NCBI GenBank assembly: GCA_964016885.1
Contig: OZ024743.1
Span: forward strand, 11,098,001 to 11,162,000
Direction: 5' to 3'
Origin: Eledone cirrhosa
Lineage: Eukaryota
Length of the DNA: 64,000 bases
Part shown: positions 12,302 to 62,099 of the stretch, one piece after another
Layout: the number at the start of each line of letters is the position of its first letter
Position numbering within the stretch: the first letter of the stretch is position 1
Program-made: the position numbers and the translations under genes
Notes under the pieces: model-generated
Seen by the model: the letters and a program-made list of their open reading frames with translations, nothing else
Databases searched by the model: none
Told to the model about the DNA's origin: nothing

Positions 12302-14895
12302 GCAAAATGAGGATATGAGCATGGGGGAGGCCTCGTTTTTGCCACTCTACGGTGTAAATGTCACACTTAACTGGTCCAAATACTTTCCTCTCTTGATGAG
12401 TTCCATGAGATTGATTAGTTTCAATCAGAAGACTCGGCCTGGATATCGTGTCGGTCTTTGGCCTGTTGACCCTGGAAGAGTTCTACCTCAATCTCTTTCC
12501 ACTTGGGATTGGACGTGAAAGTTATGAACTGATCAGGCCTACCGTAATGCCGTACGTAAGTCATAGCGTCTTGCGTCCTCTCGTGCATAGAGCGCGGACT
12601 TCCAGTGAAAGTGGACGGGAGGATGTAGAGTTTGCCTATGCTGGTGGGGGCTGCATCATTGTTGATGGCATTGCGGAAGTGGATGTAGCTATCGGAACGC
12701 AGTTGCTTCTGGTGTGACCGTTTGAAGCACAACCTGTCCGACTCCATTTTCGCGCACATATCAACCGCGAATTGCCGAAAGAGGTCTCTTGACTGGTGCA
12801 GGTGGTTGACGGAGTTTTGGTGGACCATGAAGCGGTTTGAGTAGAAGTCCATGCAGGAAACGGTTTTCTTGGCGGAATGCCCAGGGTTTTCTGGATTATG
12901 CTGTGGAAGACCTAATCGGTATCCATCCTCTCCATGCACAAATAGAAGCGAGTACTGAAGGGCGTTATAAGATCTATTGGGTTTCACTTATACGCTGAAG
13001 TGTGTTGTCCCGTCGCCTGAGAACAATGTCTCGTGGGTTGCGCTGATCGCCATGGAGAAAAACAGCGATTTCATTGCAAGCAGGTGAATTGTAGCGGCCC
13101 GAATGCTGGCCAGAAGGCCTGTTTGAGGTGCCAATGACCACATTAAAGTCTGATGAAGGAGCTGCTACCAAAGAATATTTGAAACTGATGATATAGCTGT
13201 TGTGTGTGTGTAATATGTCTTGTAGTTTCCTTATAAGCTCCAGGTTGGTACCAGGAGTTCCGCATGGCTGCCTGTTCGCTGACATTCGAAGTAAAGTTGA
13301 AGAAATTGAGGAACTTGATTGGCGGTAGGCTGGAGTGATCCAATTCTATGGTACACTTGCCCTTGCACTTTAAATGTGGGCATAAATCCACCCTCTTTGA
13401 CAATATTTGCCCCGAAAGATGTCATCTGGAAGGCATAATTGTACTTCCGGATATTTTTTAGGAAATGATTAGATTCTGCAGTTGTGTCTGTAAAATGGAG
13501 CTTCAACGGCTGTGGTGGGTCCTCCAGTGGGTACAGTTTGACCTTCCCGTTTGTGCAGCACATACCAGGTGTTTCGCCTGACCACTTTTTAGCATTGCAA
13601 AAAGAGCACGATTTTGACATACTCCCAAGTATCATGTCGTAGGGGCTGTCATAGTCGAAGTCGGGGTTGTACTTGAAGGCTTTGAAGGCCCATTTTGAGC
13701 GGCATGGTTTTGAAATGCCCTGCCTAAAGGCTCTTCGTTGAGAATTACTTTCTAGTTGATTATCTTGTTCTTGCGAGGCCTGTGTAGCTCGCGCAGCAGC
13801 AGTGTTGTTCGTAGCATCATCACTCCGACGTCTACTACGCTGGTCTTCTCTCTCGGCAGGTCGTGCAGCAGAAGTTGATGCATCATCATCACTCCGACGT
13901 CTACTACGCTGGTCTTCTCTCTCGGCAGGTCGTGCAGCAGAAGTTGATGCATCATCATCACTCCGACGTCTACTACGCTGGTCTTCTCTCTCGGCAGGTC
14001 GTGCAGCAGAAGTTGATGCATCATCATCACTCCGACGTCTACTACGCTGGTCTTCTCTCTCGGCAGGTCGTGCAGCAGAAGTTGATGCATCATCATCACT
14101 CCGACGTCTACTACGCTGGTCTTCTCTCTCGGCAGGTCGTGCAGCAGAAGTTGATGCATCATCATCACTCCGACGTCTACTACGCTGGTCTTCTCTCTCG
14201 GCAGGTCGTGCAGCAGAAGTTGATGCAGCATCATCACTCCGACGTCTACTACGCTGGTCTTCTCTCTCGGCAGGTCGTGCAGCAGAAGTTGATGCATCAT
14301 CATCACTCCGACGTCTACTACGCTGGTCTTCTCTCTCGGCAGGTCGTGCAGCAGAAGTTGATGCAGCATCATCACTCCGACGTCTACTACGCTGGTCTTC
14401 TCTCTCGGCAGGTCGTGCAGCAGAAGTTGATGCAGCATCATCACTCCGACGTCTACTACGCTGGTCTTCTGTCTCGGCAGCTCGTGCAGCAGAAGTTGAT
14501 GCAGCATCATCACTCCGACGTCTACTACGCTGGTCTTCTGTCTCGGCAGCTCGTGCAGCAGAAGTTGATGCAGCATCATCACTCCGACGTCTACTACGCT
14601 GGTCTTCTGTCTCGGCAGCTCGTGCAGCAGAAGTTGATGCAGCATCATCACTCCGACGTCTACTACGCTGGTCTTCTGTCTCGGCAGCTCGTGCAGCAGA
14701 AGTTGATGCAGCATCATCACTCCGACGATTGGTTTGTTGTTTGTATGTTTCAAGTGCTCTTCTGGTTACAGTACGTTCTGCATTTTGCGACTGTCGAATA
14801 GCAGATTCCACTGACGATTCGTTTGCCCGCGTTGTTCTTTCTCTTGCCACTATCGCAGTATTTCGGCCAATGGAGTATCTCTTCCTTCGAGGCAT
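12302..14895 (-). pseudogene. Helitron Rep/Helicase N-terminal part (frameshifted, truncated after the HUH motif)
   Basis: CSFC...MCCTNGKV zinc motif, FLKNIRKYNYAFQMTSFG, FKVQGQVYHRIGSL, ILPSTFTGSPR...DAMTYVRHYGRPD.FITFTSNPKWKEI, and IYTVEWQKRGLPHAHILI (HUH) at about 12305-12360; at least 3 frameshifts; helicase absent. Confidence 0.92.
13812..14727. repeat. 63-bp coding minisatellite, about 14.5 copies (21-aa repeat RRRSDDAASTSAARAAETEDQ-type)
   Basis: Direct tandem repeat visible in DNA and in ORF 13231..14895. Confidence 0.97.
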
Positions 14896-17557: not shown

Positions 17558-17634
<77 letters not shown>

Positions 17635-17836
17635 TATGTATACGTACATACACATATGTATACAGACGTACAGTAGTATGTATATACATACATACATGCA
17701 CACATGTATATATATGTACGTATGGGTTTACCGAACACTTATTATAATGTTCGGTTTGTTTGTAAACAAACAGCCCGTTTAAGCCGTACAGTGTTCGGCA
17801 ACCATCGTTGCCCTTTTATTCAACACTGACAAAGGA

Positions 17837-17879
17837 ACGATGAACTAGTTTCTAGCTTATTAGCTGTCATCAGCACCGT
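17837..17879 (-). ncRNA. Type I hammerhead ribozyme in a solo relative of the 466-bp unit
   Basis: ACGGTG-CTGATGA-c-AGCT-aata-AGCT-a-GAAA-CTAG-TT-CATCGT. Confidence 0.8.
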
Positions 17880-18266
17880 ATACCTTCCTGTCAGCTGATT
17901 GAACGTTTGAAAGTATATACTTTCCTTATGCATATTAATGGCTGAGCAGCCTAATTTGCATATCGAGTTAGTCGGCCGGGCGTACCGAAAACGATAAATG
18001 GAAAAAGTGAAATTTCACTTTACATTCCCTTACCACCCGCACACATACAAGTTTGTTGCATCACCACACTGCGAAGCACACACTTGCATAGAACAACACA
18101 CATACATACGGGAATATACACATTGCCATAAATACTTCGTATCCTTCAGACTCTCACTTAAGCAGTTACACACTCATAAATACGAAGACTCCCAAATAGA
18201 TACTTCCATATATTGTTCACACACACACACACATGCAGACTAGAAAACACAAGATAACGCACAGGT

Positions 18267-21550: not shown

Positions 21551-21611
<61 letters not shown>

Positions 21612-21619
21612 GTATATAC

Positions 21620-21651
<32 letters not shown>

Positions 21652-21703
21652 GTATATACATATATATATATATGTATATACATATATATATATATGTATA
21701 TAC

Positions 21704-21735
<32 letters not shown>

Positions 21736-21843
21736 GTATATACATATATATATATATGTATATACATATATATATATATAAATATATATATATACATATA
21801 TATATACATATATATATACATATATATATACATATATATATAC

Positions 21844-21874
<31 letters not shown>

Positions 21875-21886
21875 CATATATATACA

Positions 21887-21918
<32 letters not shown>

Positions 21919-21980
21919 CATATATGTATATATATATATATATGTATATATATATGTATGTATATATATACATATATATG

Positions 21981-22013
<33 letters not shown>

Positions 22014-22056
22014 GTATATATATATGTATATATATATATATGTATATATATATATG

Positions 22057-22142
<86 letters not shown>

Positions 22143-22157
22143 CATATATATATATAC

Positions 22158-22205
<48 letters not shown>

Positions 22206-22245
22206 GTATACATATATATATATATATACATATATATATGTATAC

Positions 22246-22295
<50 letters not shown>

Positions 22296-22301
22296 GTATA
22301 C

Positions 22302-22365
<64 letters not shown>

Positions 22366-22371
22366 GTATAC

Positions 22372-22443
<72 letters not shown>

Positions 22444-22449
22444 GTATAC

Positions 22450-22481
<32 letters not shown>

Positions 22482-22487
22482 GTATAC

Positions 22488-22543
<56 letters not shown>

Positions 22544-22617
22544 ACATATATATATATATATATATGTATACATATATATATATATATATATGTATACATA
22601 TATATATATATATATGT

Positions 22618-22653
<36 letters not shown>

Positions 22654-22889
22654 ACATATATATATATATATATATATATATGTATACATATATATATATA
22701 CATATATATATGTATACATATATATATATACATATATATATATATGTATACATATATATATATACATATATATATATATGTATACATATATATGTATACA
22801 TATATATATATACATATATATATATACATATATATATATATATGTATACATATATATATATATACATATATATATATATGTATACATAT
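21551..22889. repeat. Long degenerate (TA)n tract with CA/TGTATACA variants
   Basis: Direct inspection. Confidence 0.98.
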
Positions 22890-23116
22890 ATAAACAATTA
22901 AGTTAAAAATGTACATCCACATATGTATACTGAAATACTAGTATGCATATGAATACACACACGTATACATATGTAGATGTACCGAGTTTTTCACTGGTCA
23001 CTTTACTGTGAGTGTCCAGCTATTCTGTATGTAAACACACAGACAAACCGGTTTTTAGAGTCATACTGGTTTTTGAGGAAACACCTTTCCTCTATTCTCC
23101 AGAAAGCCAGACAAGG

Positions 23117-23161
23117 AATATTGAACTAGTTTCGTTGTTGTTACAACTCATCAGCAATATT
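23117..23161 (-). ncRNA. Type I hammerhead, left arm (second copy 23583-23627)
   Basis: Reverse complement of the 24103-24147 motif. Confidence 0.88.
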
Positions 23162-24102
23162 TACCTATCTTCCGGCCTTTCTAGAGAATCGTAAAAGCAC
23201 ATATCGTTATATGCTTTTTCTATGAAAATTAGTAGTGGGCAGACCAATTTGCATAGAGCGTGAGTACGTACCGGTTCAACGGAGACGATAAAAACAAATA
23301 ACGAAACGAAATTAAATTTCGTTTCGTTTGTAACTCACTTTTGTATGACTGACGCTTAAACAATTATGTTAAAAATGTACATCCACATATGTATACTGAA
23401 ATACTAGTATGCATATGAATACACACACGTATACATATGTAGATGTACCGAGTTTTTCACTGGTCACTTTACTGTGAGTGTCCAGCTATTCTGTATGTAA
23501 ACACACAGACAAACCGGTTTTTAGAGTCATACTGGTTTTTGAGGAAACACCTTTCCTCTATTCTCCAGAAAGCCAGACAAGGAATATTGAACTAGTTTCG
23601 TTGTTGTTACAACTCATCAGCAATATTTACCTATCTTCCGGCCTTTCTAGAGAATCGTAAAAGCACATATCGTTATATGCTTTTTCTATGAAAATTAGTA
23701 GTGGGCAGACCAATTTGCATAGAGCGTGAGTACGTACCGGTTCAACGGAGACGATAAAAACAAATAACGAAACGAAATTAAATTTCGTTTCGTTTGTAAC
23801 TCACTTTTGTATGACTGACGCTTAAACAATTATGTTAAAAATGTACATCCACATATGTATACTGAAATACTAGTATGCATATGAATACACACACGTATAC
23901 ATATGTAGATTTACCGAGTTTTTCACTGGTCACTTTACTGTGAGTGTCCAGCTATTCTGTATGTAAACACACAGACAAACCGGTTTTTAGAGTCATACTG
24001 GTTTTTACTATGCAAATTGGTCTGCCCACTACTAATTTTCATAGAAAAAGCATATAACGATATGTGCTTTTACGATTCTCTAGAAAGGCCGGAAGATAGG
24101 TA

Positions 24103-24147
24103 AATATTGCTGATGAGTTGTAACAACAACGAAACTAGTTCAATATT
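24103..24147 (+). ncRNA. Type I hammerhead, right arm (repeats start at 24569, 25035, 25501, 25967)
   Basis: AATATTG-CTGATGA-GTTGT-aaca-ACAAC-GAAA-CTAG-TT-CAATATT: perfect 7-bp stem I, 5-bp stem II, palindromic stem III, GUU site. Confidence 0.9.
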
Positions 24148-26444
24148 CCTTGTCTGGCTTTCTGGAGAATAGAGGAAAGGTGTTTCCTCAAAAACCAGTA
24201 TGACTCTAAAAACCGGTTTGTCTGTGTGTTTACATACAGAATAGCTGGACACTCACAGTAAAGTGACCAGTGAAAAACTCGGTACATCTACATATGTATA
24301 CGTGTGTGTATTCATATGCATACTAGTATTTCAGTATACATATGTGGATGTACATTTTTAACTTAATTGTTTAAGCGTCAGTCATACAAAAGTGAGTTAC
24401 AAACGAAACGAAATTTAATTTCGTTTCGTTATTTGTTTTTATCGTCTCCGTTGAACCGGTACGTACTCACGCTCTATGCAAATTGGTCTGCCCACTACTA
24501 ATTTTCATAGAAAAAGCATATAACGATATGTGCTTTTACGATTCTCTAGAAAGGCCGGAAGATAGGTAAATATTGCTGATGAGTTGTAACAACAACGAAA
24601 CTAGTTCAATATTCCTTGTCTGGCTTTCTGGAGAATAGAGGAAAGGTGTTTCCTCAAAAACCAGTATGACTCTAAAAACCGGTTTGTCTGTGTGTTTACA
24701 TACAGAATAGCTGGACACTCACAGTAAAGTGACCAGTGAAAAACTCGGTACATCTACATATGTATACGTGTGTGTATTCATATGCATACTAGTATTTCAG
24801 TATACATATGTGGATGTACATTTTTAACTTAATTGATTAAGCGTCAGTCATACAAAAGTGAGTTACAAACGAAACGAAATTTAATTTCGTTTCGTTATTT
24901 GTTTTTATCGTCTCCGTTGAACCGGTACGTACTCACGCTCTATGCAAATTGGTCTGCCCACTACTAATTTTCATAGAAAAAGCATATAACGATATGTGCT
25001 TTTACGATTCTCTAGAAAGGCCGGAAGATAGGTAAATATTGCTGATGAGTTGTAACAACAACGAAACTAGTTCAATATTCCTTGTCTGGCTTTCTGGTGA
25101 ATAGAGGAAAGGTGTTTCCTCAAAAACCAGTATGACTCTAAAAACCGGTTTGTCTGTGTGTTTACATACAGAATAGCTGGACACTCACAGTAAAGTGACC
25201 AGTGAAAAACTCGGTACATCTACATATGTATACGTGTGTGTATTCATATGCATACTAGTATTTCAGTATACATATGTGGATGTACATTTTTAACTTAATT
25301 GTTTAAGCGTCAGTCATACAAAAGTGAGTTACAAACGAAACGAAATTTAATTTCGTTTCGTTATTTGTTTTTATCGTCTCCGTTGAACCGGTACGTACTC
25401 ACGCTCTATGCAAATTGGTCTGCCCACTACTAATTTTCATAGAAAAAGCATATAACGATATGTGCTTTTACGATTCTCTAGAAAGGCCGGAAGATAGGTA
25501 AATATTGCTGATGAGTTGTAACAACAACGAAACTAGTTCAATATTCCTTGTCTGGCTTTCTGGAGAATAGAGGAATGGTGTTTCCTCAAAAACCAGTATG
25601 ACTCTAAAAACCGGTTTGTCTGTGTGTTTACATACAGAATAGCTGGACACTCACAGTAAAGTGACCAGTGAAAAACTCGGTACATCTACATATGTATACG
25701 TGTGTGTATTCATATGCATACTAGTATTTCAGTATACATATGTGGATGTACATTTTTAACTTAATTGTTTAAGCGTCAGTCATACAAAAGTGAGTTACAA
25801 ACGAAACGAAATTTAATTTCGTTTCGTTATTTGTTTTTATCGTCTCCGTTGAACCGGTACGTACTCACGCTCTATGCAAATTGGTCTGCCCACTACTAAT
25901 TTTCATAGAAAAAGCATATAACGATATGTGCTTTTACGATTCTCTAGAAAGGCCGGAAGATAGGTAAATATTGCTGATGAGTTGTAACAACAACGAAACT
26001 AGTTCAATATTCCTTGTCTGGCTTTCTGGAGAATAGAGGAAAGGTGTTTCCTCAAAAACCAGTATGACTCTAAAAACCGGTTTGTCTGTGTGTTTACATA
26101 CAGAATAGCTGGACACTCACAGTAAAGTGACCAGTGAAAAACTCGGTACATCTACATATGTATACGTGTGTGTATTCATATGCATACTAGTATTTCAGTA
26201 TACATATGTGGATGTACATTTTTAACTTAATTGTTTAAGCGTCAGTCATACAAAAGTGAGTTACAAACGAAACGAAATTTAATTTCGTTTGGTTATTTGT
26301 TTTTATACATATATATATATACATATATATATATATGTATACATATATATATATACATATATATATATGTATACATATATATATATATATACATATATAT
26401 ATATGTATACATATATATATATATACATATATATATATGTATAC

Positions 26445-41494: not shown

Positions 41495-41578
41495 GTATTG
41501 ACGCACATGAGACACGAACCCATATCTTTGAAATGCCGCACCAATATGTTACCATTACACCAACACGCCGCCCTAGAT
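41495..41578 (-). pseudogene. tRNA-like head (tRNA pseudogene or SINE head)
   Basis: A-box tggtgtaatggt and B-box-like gggttcgtgtctc at tRNA-like spacing; no intact cloverleaf. Confidence 0.45.
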
Positions 41579-45201: not shown

Positions 45202-45254
45202 CTGCTATATATATTTCAGTGACAGCCATTATTGGCTGTGACCTCATCAGGCAG
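45202..45254 (-). ncRNA. Type I hammerhead ribozyme
   Basis: CTGC-CTGATGA-ggtc-ACAGCCA-ataa-TGGCTGT-cact-GAAA-TATATA-TA-GCAG. Confidence 0.8.
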
Positions 45255-54945: not shown

Positions 54946-54992
<47 letters not shown>

Positions 54993-55463
54993 AATATATA
55001 TATATATATACATAAATATATATATATATATATATATACATAAATATATATATATATATATATACATAAATATATATATATATATACATAAATATATATA
55101 TATATATATATACATAAATATATATATATATATATATATACATAAATATATATATATATATACATAAATATATATATATATATACATAAATATATATATA
55201 TATATATATACATAAATATATATATATATATATATATATACATACATAAATGTATATATATATATACATAAATATATATATATATATATATATACATAAA
55301 TATATATATATACATAAATATATTTATATATATACATAAATATATATATATACATAAATATATATATATGTATATACATAAATATATGTATATACATAAA
55401 TATATGTATATATACATAAATATATATATATACATAAATATATATATATGTATATACATAAAT

Positions 55464-55495
<32 letters not shown>

Positions 55496-55600
55496 CATAT
55501 ATATATATACATAAATATATATATATATACATAAATATATATATATATATACATAAATATAATATATAAGAACAAAAGATGGTTAAAAGAGTTCCATGTA

Positions 55601-55667
55601 TTTTATTATACGCATTTCAAAAACAAATATCATCATGCAATAATATTTGTGTTTTCTTCAGATAAAA
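55601..55667 (-). ncRNA. Type I hammerhead ribozyme (inverted partner of 56364-56434)
   Basis: TTTTAT-CTGAAGA-long AT-rich stem II-GAAA-TGCGTA-TA-ATAAAA. Confidence 0.75.
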
Positions 55668-55771
55668 CAGGAAGACATGATATGAAGTTTAAAAAAAACA
55701 CTTGTGGATAGTTCAGCTTTAAATCAACATATAAAACTCACCTCCTACATTATACATAAATATATATATAC

Positions 55772-55850
<79 letters not shown>

Positions 55851-55852
55851 CA

Positions 55853-55937
<85 letters not shown>

Positions 55938-55942
55938 GTATA

Positions 55943-56087
<145 letters not shown>

Positions 56088-56108
56088 GTGTATATATATG
56101 TATATATG

Positions 56109-56298
<190 letters not shown>

Positions 56299-56363
56299 CA
56301 ACATATGTTGATTTAAAACTGCACTATTGACAAGTGTTTTTTAACCTTCATATCATGTCTTCC

Positions 56364-56434
56364 TATTGTATCTGATGAAAACACAAATATTATTGCCTGA
56401 TGATATTTGTTTTTGAAATGCGCATAATAAAATA
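56364..56434 (+). ncRNA. Type I hammerhead ribozyme
   Basis: TATTGTAT-CTGATGA-aaac-ACAAATATTATT-gcct-GATGATATTTGT-tttt-GAAA-TGCGCA-TA-ATAAAATA. Confidence 0.8.
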
Positions 56435-56462
56435 CATGGAACTCTTTTAACCATCTTTTGAG

Positions 56463-59126
<2,664 letters not shown>

Positions 59127-59238
59127 TAGAATATTCGAAAATATTCTGTATGTTTATAATAAACATTTTGAAGACCTAATCGCTATAGAATAGAATACGT
59201 CACGTATTACAATTAGATTCTCGATAAAAGCAAGGGAA

Positions 59239-59281
59239 GTAATCTACGCGTTTCATTCTTGTTAGAATTCATCAGGACTAC
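59239..59281 (-). ncRNA. Type I hammerhead, left arm (7 copies every 310 bp, last at 61099-61141)
   Basis: Reverse complement of the 61588-61630 motif. Confidence 0.9.
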
Positions 59282-61587
59282 ATATCCAGTGCTTTTATCG
59301 AGAATGACACAGCTAGAGACTTATAGAATACTTAGCTGTGTACTGGAACTGGTTTGAAAGAGCGGTTGCCGGTCCGGCAGAAATTAGAAATTGGAATAAA
59401 TGCTCTGAAATAGCGATATATATGTGAGTATAGACATAGAATATTCGAAAATATTCTGTATGTTTATAATAAACATTTTGAAGACCTAATCGCTATAGAA
59501 TAGAATACGTCACGTATTACAATTAGATTCTCGATAAAAGCAAGGGAAGTAATCTACGCGTTTCATTCTTGTTAGAATTCATCAGGACTACATATCCAGT
59601 GCTTTTATCGAGAATGACACAGCTAGAGACTTATAGAATACTTAGCTGTGTACTGGAACTGGTTTGAAAGAGCGGTTGCCGGTCCGGCAGAAATTAGAAA
59701 TTGGAATAAATGCTCTGAAATAGCGATATATATGTGAGTATAGACATAGAATATTCGAAAATATTCTGTATGTTTATAATAAACATTTTGAAGACCTAAT
59801 CGCTATAGAATAGAATACGTCACGTATTACAATTAGATTCTCGATAAAAGCAAGGGAAGTAATCTACGCGTTTCATTCTTGTTAGAATTCATCAGGACTA
59901 CATATCCAGTGCTTTTATCGAGAATGACACAGCTAGAGACTTATAGAATACTTAGCTGTGTACTGGAACTGGTTTGAAAGAGCGGTTGCCGGTCCGGCAG
60001 AAATTAGAAATTGGAATAAATGCTCTGAAATAGCGATATATATGTGAGTATAGACATAGAATATTCGAAAATATTCTGTATGTTTATAATAAACATTTTG
60101 AAGACCTAATCGCTATAGAATAGAATACGTCACGTATTACAATTAGATTCTCGATAAAAGCAAGGGAAGTAATCTACGCGTTTCATTCTTGTTAGAATTC
60201 ATCAGGACTACATATCCAGTGCTTTTATCGAGAATGACACAGCTAGAGACTTATAGAATACTTAGCTGTGTACTGGAACTGGTTTGAAAGAGCGGTTGCC
60301 GGTCCGGCAGAAATTAGAAATTGGAATAAATGCTCTGAAATAGCGATATATATGTGAGTATAGACATAGAATATTCGAAAATATTCTGTATGTTTATAAT
60401 AAACATTTTGAAGACCTAATCGCTATAGAATAGAATACGTCACGTATTACAATTAGATTCTCGATAAAAGCAAGGGAAGTAATCTACGCGTTTCATTCTT
60501 GTTAGAATTCATCAGGACTACATATCCAGTGCTTTTATCGAGAATGACACAGCTAGAGACTTATAGAATACTTAGCTGTGTACTGGAACTGGTTTGAAAG
60601 AGCGGTTGCCGGTCCGGCAGAAATTAGAAATTGGAATAAATGCTCTGAAATAGCGATATATATGTGAGTATAGACATAGAATATTCGAAAATATTCTGTA
60701 TGTTTATAATAAACATTTTGAAGACCTAATCGCTATAGAATAGAATACGTCACGTATTACAATTAGATTCTCGATAAAAGCAAGGGAAGTAATCTACGCG
60801 TTTCATTCTTGTTAGAATTCATCAGGACTACATATCCAGTGCTTTTATCGAGAATGACACAGCTAGAGACTTATAGAATACTTAGCTGTGTACTGGAACT
60901 GGTTTGAAAGAGCGGTTGCCGGTCCGGCAGAAATTAGAAATTGGAATAAATGCTCTGAAATAGCGATATATATGTGAGTATAGACATAGAATATTCGAAA
61001 ATATTCTGTATGTTTATAATAAACATTTTGAAGACCTAATCGCTATAGAATAGAATACGTCACGTATTACAATTAGATTCTCGATAAAAGCAAGGGAAGT
61101 AATCTACGCGTTTCATTCTTGTTAGAATTCATCAGGACTACATATCCAGTGCTTTTATCGAGAATGACACAGCTAGAGACTTATAGAATACTTAGCTGTG
61201 TACTGGAACTGGTTTGAAAGAGCGGTTGCCGGTCCGGCAGAAATTAGAAATTGGAATAAATGCTCTGAAATAGCGATATATATGTGAGTATAGACATAGA
61301 ATATTCGAAAATATTCTGTATGTTTATTCTTTTATCGAGAATCTAATTGTAATACGTGACGTATTCTATTCTATAGCGATTAGGTCTTCAAAATGTTTAT
61401 TATAAACATACAGAATATTTTCGAATATTCTATGTCTATACTCACATATATATCGCTATTTCAGAGCATTTATTCCAATTTCTAATTTCTGCCGGACCGG
61501 CAACCGCTCTTTCAAACCAGTTCCAGTACACAGCTAAGTATTCTATAAGTCTCTAGCTGTGTCATTCTCGATAAAAGCACTGGATAT

Positions 61588-61630
61588 GTAGTCCTGATGA
61601 ATTCTAACAAGAATGAAACGCGTAGATTAC
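61588..61630 (+). ncRNA. Type I hammerhead, right arm (second copy 61898-61940)
   Basis: GTAGTC-CTGATGA-ATTCT-aaca-AGAAT-GAAA-CGCG-TA-GATTAC: 6-bp stem I with one G-U, palindromic stem III, GUA site. Confidence 0.92.
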
Positions 61631-62099
61631 TTCCCTTGCTTTTATCGAGAATCTAATTGTAATACGTGACGTATTCTATTCTATAGCGATTAGGTCTTCA
61701 AAATGTTTATTATAAACATACAGAATATTTTCGAATATTCTATGTCTATACTCACATATATATCGCTATTTCAGAGCATTTATTCCAATTTCTAATTTCT
61801 GCCGGACCGGCAACCGCTCTTTCAAACCAGTTCCAGTACACAGCTAAGTATTCTATAAGTCTCTAGCTGTGTCATTCTCGATAAAAGCACTGGATATGTA
61901 GTCCTGATGAATTCTAACAAGAATGAAACGCGTAGATTACTTCCCTTGCTTTTATCGAGAATCTAATTGTAATACGTGACGTATTCTATTCTATAGCGAT
62001 TAGGTCTTCAAAATGTTTATTATAAACATACAGAATATTTTCGAATATTCTATGTCTATACTCACATATATATCGCTATTTCAGAGCATTTATTCCAAT

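Follow-up and report, generated by a model that had tools for sequence, protein, structure and literature searches.

The window analysed here, a stretch of 64,000 nucleotides (nt) of the Eledone cirrhosa genome (GenBank assembly GCA_964016885.1, contig OZ024743.1, positions 11,098,001 to 11,162,000 of the forward strand), contains an array of a 466-nt unit whose copies form two head-to-head arms between (TA)n tracts and carry a hammerhead ribozyme motif. We are confident that this unit is a retrozyme mobilised by Penelope-like elements (PLEs). Throughout the genome the informative fold-back arrays of this family and of its relatives have one arm stopping at a short and the other at a long 3' site, and the two arms of a locus mostly share one haplotype. 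Two primings at fixed sites are very probably behind this pattern; it is probable that both of them take place on one RNA molecule and, with somewhat less assurance, we suggest that this template is circular. The element class and the layout of an inverted copy plus tail are already known, and it is the regularity of the ends together with the haplotype that is new.

As had been proposed in a preliminary description made from the letters of the window alone, Tandem Repeats Finder places 2.4 copies of the unit at 22891-24006 and 4.9 inverted copies at 24008-26306, and phase mapping refines this to 2.39 copies on the minus and 4.93 on the plus strand. The junction at 24006/24008 was also given correctly, with one extra A at 24007 between the arms. 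If phases are counted from the base after the predicted hammerhead cut (window position 24607 = phase 1), the outer ends are found at phases 233 and 302, 69 nt apart and with a TA tract beyond each, in agreement with the offset of about 70 nt noticed before. The reported difference between copies (aattaag versus aattatg) is real as well and lies at phase 223, where the variant is present in two of the three left-arm copies and in none of the five right-arm copies. The unit has a GC content of 36% and is non-coding, the longest ATG open reading frame (ORF) of the concatenated unit being 19 amino acids in sense and 50 amino acids in antisense direction. Its predicted circular fold reaches -157 kcal/mol (z = -9.7 against 40 shuffles).

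The host genome of 3.0 Gb, which carries spliceosomal small nuclear RNA (snRNA) genes and elements with reverse transcriptase (RT) and GIY-YIG domains, contains at least 173 matches to the unit, as judged from the best 40 of 322 candidates. We mapped 37 loci, namely the window and 36 other, best-scoring loci among the matches listed, and added a second sample of all 10 loci of 466 type among the first 100 position-ordered pattern matches on contig C1. With 47 mapped loci the unit represents a dispersed, mobile family. At the 37 loci the sense 3' ends lie at two places, the short site (phases 226-233) and the long site (phases 297-304), nearly always with TA next to them. Head-to-head fold-backs make up 26 of these loci, and one short and one long end were found in all 22 informative ones; in four more (L026, L031, L033, L036) one end has given way to other sequence, and these were not counted. 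The C1 sample contributed four clear fold-backs, again all with one end of each kind, besides one that has lost an end (L161), three single arms and two that fit the rule but were left uncounted, as the arms of L150 are 4.8 kb apart and L156 has a stub of 11 nt. A second family with a 310-nt unit, sampled as the array in the window and all 19 loci among the matches listed, shows the same behaviour: 19 out of 19 fold-backs have one short (~132-139) and one long (163-172) end, next to two single arms. Taken together, 45 of 45 informative fold-backs are of the one-of-each kind, for which the chance would be 0.5^45 = 3e-14 if the arms picked their sites independently. Two fold-backs of sister families also have one short and one long end. 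Most outer ends of the 466-nt and 310-nt loci abut TA, which identifies (TA)n tracts as the target. No terminal repeats besides the unit itself were seen at the 37 mapped loci; a primer-binding site or polypurine tract was not searched for.

Inverted and tandem repeats are difficult to assemble, which could favour an assembly or read fold-back artefact. In the independent sequencing run X1, TA loose ends occur at 23288-23289 and 24442-24443 (long site) and at 26237 (short site), and 14 joints link left-arm to right-arm sequence at other phases. As the ends are asymmetric, the same rule holds at 45 loci of a dispersed family and the same ends with further junctions are present in an independent run, an artefact is excluded for practical purposes. 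The preliminary view of a real array is thus confirmed, as is the same geometry that it had noticed in the 466-nt and 310-nt families.

The two arms of a locus are also connected by their sequence. At 16 polymorphic sites they mismatch in 8 of 338 comparisons, compared with 2646 of 7806 (34%) between loci, a difference reached in 0 of 20000 permutations; this test was performed without L026 and L035. No arm-to-arm mismatch at all was found in 18 of the 24 loci. Ten variants (in eight loci) are private to a single locus among the 27 aligned and have become fixed there in the two arms, and in L100 two adjacent fold-backs of 310 type have different haplotypes, each of them concordant within itself. 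Variants are therefore mostly not arm-specific, a possibility for which an alignment of all copies had been recommended. In arms of up to five copies we found 49 fixed derived substitutions, 47 singletons and four partly shared ones, including the aattaag/aattatg site. The singletons were counted without L044 and without the part of L023 in which the haplotype is switched; phase 230 was omitted since the reference copy itself is the variant there. In 13 of 22 fold-backs of the 466-nt family and 10 of 19 of the 310-nt family the arm with the short end exceeds the other in length, so either arm can be longer and neither simply duplicates its partner. The inner junctions are non-palindromic, their phases are scattered and every locus has its own. 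When calculated with the locus haplotypes, since analysis without them is confounded by locus variants, 18 of 24 junctions show an overlap of 0-4 nt (mean 1.8 versus 0.74 by chance) and the remaining six contain inserts of 1-27 nt. At none of the 37 mapped loci does an arm start within 5 nt of the cleavage site, and therefore copying passes through it.

A motif scan confirmed the seven hammerheads described previously, with their 7-bp stem I, palindromic CTAG, GUU site and AACA loop II. These type I cores are located at 24110, 24576, 25042, 25508 and 25974 on the plus and at 23620 and 23154 on the minus strand, that is seven cores in seven covering copies; in each of them stem II has 5 bp and helix III is a single A-U pair closed by the palindromic CTAG tetraloop. 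One hammerhead with its flanks folds with z = -5.1 against 200 shuffles. An Rfam search of the window at gathering score returned no hammerhead, its sole match being one tRNA. According to the motif scan the hammerhead is present on the sense strand only, other ribozyme classes being covered just by Rfam at gathering score, so ribozymes in both polarities, as in viroid-like RNAs, were not found. In an alignment of 17 hammerheads 90.5% of the cells are paired and nine of 13 pairs have changed on both sides, with a covariation of 0.60 compared to 0.23 for shuffled alignments (0 of 500) and at most 0.14 when the same hammerheads were slid. These 17 were picked by hand from the 466-nt, sister and 310-nt families and are related sequences, so the value is support rather than a probability, but judged from these sequences the ribozyme is conserved in structure across the three groups. 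Palindromic helices III that function in dimers have been described (PMC4209133).

With units of ~430-510 nt, the sister families have the tail hairpin, the CTAG hammerhead and an octamer block in common with the 466-nt unit. A 17-nt pattern covering this superfamily has 31,731 matches in the genome versus one for a control pattern. The 310-nt unit had been called unrelated in sequence, which is slightly too strong: BLASTN aligns 62 nt at 73% identity (E 5e-4) over the ribozyme and ~30 nt behind it, and a 12-nt exact word stands at the same phase (92-103) in both units, although this match is weak (E 0.07). The idea of a mechanism common to both families is strengthened by the rule for their ends, which holds genome-wide, whereas their proposed independence is not, as from their sequences they are probably distant relatives. 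A sister-family copy is present in the window itself on the minus strand (17633-18000, core at 17873), where it stops at its own short site in a TA tract.

In order to find the element that might supply the enzyme we looked into the PLEs of the genome. It contains 10,596 GIY-YIG candidates, of which 150 were scored. Seven ORFs were scanned at E 0.01, and four contain RVT_1 and GIY-YIG, two RVT_1 only and one GIY-YIG only. The PLEs at L106 and L108 have a Cys motif before the endonuclease like that given for Neptune and Nematis (Craig et al. 2021, PMC8557442). PLEs of this type also end at two sites, ~62 and ~37 nt apart, in TA tracts and form fold-backs (L117, L108), and their hammerheads differ from that of the 466-nt unit. 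A TBLASTN search of 36 + 19 loci, the window and 20 more regions (10 of them of 466 type) revealed no RT or endonuclease ORF continuing the unit. At L153 (2660-3571) a long-end arm of 466 type is joined head-to-head with the 3' end of a PLE ORF fragment, which is 73% identical to the L108 protein and has lost its own end to another insertion; this locus is possibly a chimera of retrozyme and PLE. Near matches that lie next to PLE ORFs in L081, L116 and L117 were rejected, as they are sister retrozymes which have inserted into TA tracts on their own. By eye, the long end of L108 (1330-1370, 6600-6670) and of L187 is similar to its counterpart in the 310-nt family, which makes them a lead to a partner of that family.

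These data suggest a model in which the tandem array would be transcribed, adjacent hammerheads would pair via the palindromic helix III and release 466-nt monomers, and a host ligase would close the circle (compare Cervera 2014, 2020). A PLE protein acting in trans may then bind the tail region and nick both strands of a TA tract, of which the targeting is visible at the loci and the nicking would follow the anole enzyme (Frangieh 2024). Each 3'-OH would prime via U/A-rich bases at one of the two sites, whose fixed position and one-of-each use are observed. Each enzyme would copy a variable length, often more than one unit and past the cleavage site as seen in the genomic structure, presumably by rolling-circle copying. 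Joining of the two cDNA ends with an overlap of 0-4 nt or a short insert would complete the insertion, as the junctions indicate, and some arrays expand later by unequal exchange, as seen for the longest. We see a little better than an even chance for the whole chain, in which a PLE-type RT/endonuclease pair primes from the two strands of a broken (TA)n tract and uses two fixed sites on a single RNA that is probably a circle. The more specific proposal that each fold-back is one event, in which a PLE pair performs two simultaneous rolling-circle reverse transcriptions on a single covalently closed RNA circle, has slightly less than an even chance.

The main rival is double priming at the same two sites of a linear multimer that comes from a homogeneous source array and stays uncleaved, with the copy number kept by later unequal exchange, which we regard as unlikely. 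It predicts the rule for the ends and the shared haplotypes just as well, long arrays do expand after insertion, helix III is minimal and many such ribozymes cleave poorly. Nevertheless, arrays subject to random 5' truncation would become shorter every time, but as many as 13 near-identical copies are present at young 310-nt loci, with arms of 9-13 copies that are found on both sides in L089 (9 + 9). Furthermore, the ribozyme is kept intact by compensatory changes, and just one private non-fixed variant occurs in both arms of a locus, not in mirrored copies. It also seems improbable to us that priming happens once, with a cDNA or antisense RNA that bends back to serve as its own primer (the self-priming model of Arkhipova 2013) and a second arm cut back to the other site. 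This model was proposed for head-to-head PLE repeats (PMC3846280), it accounts for the shared haplotype, and the slight microhomology at the 18 insert-free junctions would fit. However, it rests on palindromic junctions (PMC3846280), whereas those described here are non-palindromic with two scattered phases, the longer arm can bear either type of end, and a trimmed copy would have no reason to end always at the site not yet used (45/45). We give a similarly small chance to two primings on two separate RNA molecules from the same source locus, one per enzyme. The L153 joint and the haplotype switches in L023 and L044 imply that several templates can meet at one site. On the other hand, several haplotype groups exist and none of 24 fold-backs pairs different groups at its outer parts, and two RNAs offer no obvious cause for the one-of-each use of the sites. 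That the unit is just the terminal repeat of an autonomous PLE, as the preliminary description had considered, or a satellite grown in place, in either case without an RNA life of its own, is very improbable. Xenopus retrozymes are homologous to pseudo-long terminal repeats (pLTRs) and a local amplification was proposed for them (Li et al. 2026), and long arrays do grow locally in E. cirrhosa; nonetheless 36 loci and 10 further loci of 466 type (with the one head-to-head junction) show no PLE ORF in continuation of the unit, the 466-nt period is closed at every locus and each locus has its own junction.

Several observations weigh against a twin priming on one RNA circle and have to be set against the evidence given above. 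The anole PLE inserts unprocessed RNA and its hammerhead is dispensable in vitro (PMC11167929), and eight of nine Xenopus retrozyme dimers did not cleave (Li et al. 2026, 10.64898/2026.07.22.740005). The PLE ends that were compared have no clear sequence in common with the tail of the 466-nt unit, which was found in none of 50 PLE loci and none of 19 relatives of the L153 fragment (150 of the 10,596 GIY-YIG candidates being scored). Eleven of the 37 loci are one-armed, and L037 might be an exception to the rule, as it combines a short-end arm with a 24-nt inverted stub ending near the short site in non-TA sequence. One or two sites are mismatched between the arms in six of 24 loci, the phase-223 variant of the window is confined to left-arm copies, and L023 and L044 change haplotype inside an arm. 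In an arm of ~31 copies (26 full copies) 10 of 16 variants are shared in blocks, in L164 three of eight; therefore the longest arrays have grown after insertion and the copy number is no clean count of laps, which also weakens the test of arm lengths. Shared haplotypes, finally, could result from conversion between the arms or from two RNAs of one source locus as well.

Among known elements, the unit resembles animal retrozymes without long terminal repeats (non-LTR retrozymes) in being a non-coding tandem unit of low GC content with a type I hammerhead and a weak palindromic helix III in each copy, in its highly self-paired predicted circle and in the presence of PLEs in the same genome. Its length had been regarded as unusual; 466 nt is indeed above the range of 150-450 bp (Cervera and de la Pena 2020, PMC7229834) but within that of 51-972 bp reported more recently (Li, Clavereau and Pollet 2026, 10.64898/2026.07.22.740005). 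For other animal retrozymes RNA circles have been demonstrated and tandem cDNA from a circle was proposed (PMC7229834), whereas the circle of the 466-nt unit is a prediction. Non-LTR retrozymes are described as tandem arrays, and the word inverted does not occur in the accessible text of PMC7229834 and occurs once in that of the preprint by Li et al. 2026; in contrast, the head-to-head fold-back is the prevailing form here (26 of the 37 top-scoring loci), and its two fixed ends lie in TA tracts.

This arrangement is rather that of PLEs, for which an inverted 5'-truncated copy and a tail at one end only have been described (Craig et al. 2021, PMC8557442) and which share the head-to-head copy, the one-end tail and the preference for (TA)n (PMC8557442, PMC3846280). 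The geometry is thus not unusual in itself, contrary to what had been assumed. Different from PLE insertions, the arrays contain no ORF and both of their arms are multi-copy. The tail comprises 69 nt in the 466-nt and ~30 nt in the 310-nt family, compared with typically 30-40 bp in PLEs, and while it has been described as optional or often one-ended in PLEs, it is present at exactly one end in all informative fold-backs of our two families. In vitro, the protein of the anole PLE Poseidon nicks each strand of AT-rich DNA and extends it (Frangieh et al. 2024, PMC11167929); on the RNA it starts at two internal sites, which lie downstream of the hammerhead at the borders of the tail, and it was predicted to be a dimer (PMC11167929). 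Both the two sites and the AT-rich target recur here, but no difference in start site between the strands was seen for the anole enzyme (PMC11167929). The genomic rule of the fold-backs implies different sites for the two strands of one event. Twin priming of LINE-1, in which two primings on one RNA lead to a head-to-head inversion joined by microhomology, uses a variable internal site of a linear RNA for the second priming. In the 466-nt arrays, by comparison, the second site is as fixed as the first, and each arm is longer than one unit.

The features of the array and its comparison family are compiled in Table 1.

Table 1. Positions in the window of the 466-nt array, its sites and motifs, and the 310-nt array.
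Feature	Position	Strand	Remarks
Left (TA)n target tract	21551..22890	.	
Left arm	22891..24006	-	2.39 copies of the 466-nt unit; sense 3' end 22891 = short site, phase 233; 5' end phase 50
Type I hammerhead, left arm	23117..23161	-	motif scan
Type I hammerhead, left arm	23583..23627	-	motif scan
Head-to-head (5'-5') junction	24007..24007	.	one extra base, A
Right arm	24008..26306	+	4.93 copies of the 466-nt unit; begins phase 334; sense 3' end 26306 = long site, phase 302
Type I hammerhead	24569..24613	+	predicted cut after 24606; motif scan, covariation
Further type I hammerhead copies	24103-24147, 25035-25079, 25501-25545, 25967-26011	+	
Short 3'-end site	24832..24839	+	phases 226-233; in a small predicted hairpin; putative first reverse-transcription start; coordinates of one inner copy
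69-nt tail between short and long sites	24840..24908	+	13-bp hairpin at 24868-24896
Long 3'-end site	24903..24910	+	phases 297-304; U-rich, unpaired in predicted fold; putative second start site
Octamer motif (24942-24949) and TATA-like box (24982-24990)	24942..24990	+	kept in sister families; no more than a lead to a possible internal promoter
Right (TA)n target tract	26307..26711	.	variant motifs in common with left tract
310-nt fold-back array	59108..62099	.	7.17 copies on minus, 2.49 on plus strand; for comparison, its ends obey the same rule

The octamer block of the sister families is followed by a TATA-like box 41-42 nt later (counted by hand), and both together are a candidate internal promoter, given here as a lead only. 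Newt satellite 2 uses an snRNA-type promoter. Five distinct sequences upstream of host U6 genes (L138-L141) have the octamer at ~-77 in two cases, a one-base variant in two and none in one, with the TATA near -31 and an octamer-TATA spacing of 46-48 (also by hand); the position at ~-77 is unusually close to the start. No octamer was found within 320 nt of U2 genes. Local alignment of snRNA upstream regions with the units gave only TA-rich or weak matches, the likeness of octamer and TATA being seen by eye. The octamer block is also predicted to fold as an RNA hairpin. A reading as an RNA polymerase III promoter is doubtful because of the T5 runs in the sense unit (phases 215 and 296).

In the runs X4 and X5, which are labelled with other organisms, the unit assembles as a 466-nt loop of nearly a single haplotype (window 22700-26500 and 25500-26320). 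These contigs were not used as evidence for a circle, as a tandem array gives the same graph and the type of the runs is unrecorded. The 1.9 Gb of genomic reads from the study of X4 contain no read of the unit, and eleven runs with eight organism labels contain at least half of its words, which may reflect carry-over, a relative, prey or horizontal spread. No RNA run was among the runs listed as containing the unit. A contig of run X6, also of unrecorded type, has seven T>C changes within 17 nt (window 25719-25735), while none of 205 genomic copies has more than one; this looks like A-to-I editing of fold-back double-stranded RNA.

The window contains further repeats. A third hammerhead family, distinguished by its long stem II and a palindromic loop III of 6 nt, lies head-to-head at 55620-55670 (-) and 56360-56430 (+) inside the TA tract 54948-59122 and recurs in L023, L024, L045, L051, L100, L111 and L122, and a fourth type with a TA-palindrome loop III at 45250 (-) is also present in L034, L037, L051, L052, L101 and L109. 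A small fold-back element occupies 26712-26970 between TA tracts, its right end matching the sequence that truncates one arm of L026, and mirror-image tandem repeats (988/1956 and 1123/1803, window 988-1989) suggest another fold-back of ~1 kb. A 69-bp tandem repeat with 13.3 copies (13813-14727) is located inside a minus-strand ORF of 554 amino acids (13231-14895). The weak tRNA match at 41499-41569 (-), with 33.5 bits, is probably a pseudogene or the head of a short interspersed element.

Two questions have been stated as open, namely by what route PLEs arrive at tandem or inverted insertions that have a tail on one side (PMC8557442) and whether the enzymes of PLEs do copy retrozyme circles (PMC7229834; Li et al. 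2026 preprint). We found no paper on fold-back retrozyme arrays, PLE twin priming or a strict one-of-each end rule in a search of titles and abstract openings, with supplements, Repbase reports and most subscription papers outside its reach. The arrays described here offer many natural examples of a sharp rule, by which an event leaves one short and one long end and a single haplotype. Through this rule the two start sites observed in vitro (Frangieh 2024) can be related to the two strands of a single insertion, and the sites on the RNA are pinpointed. A short RNA that is copied by a PLE enzyme into multi-copy arrays in TA repeats would be a compact substrate for PLE biochemistry, and the number of matches to the superfamily pattern indicates that the process has shaped the repeat content of the host. 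If the twin rolling-circle reading is true, the inverted copy and one-sided tail of PLEs would be the result of an obligatory asymmetric twin priming, and the arrays would represent the first genomic footprint of a circular RNA as a template of retrotransposition in animals.

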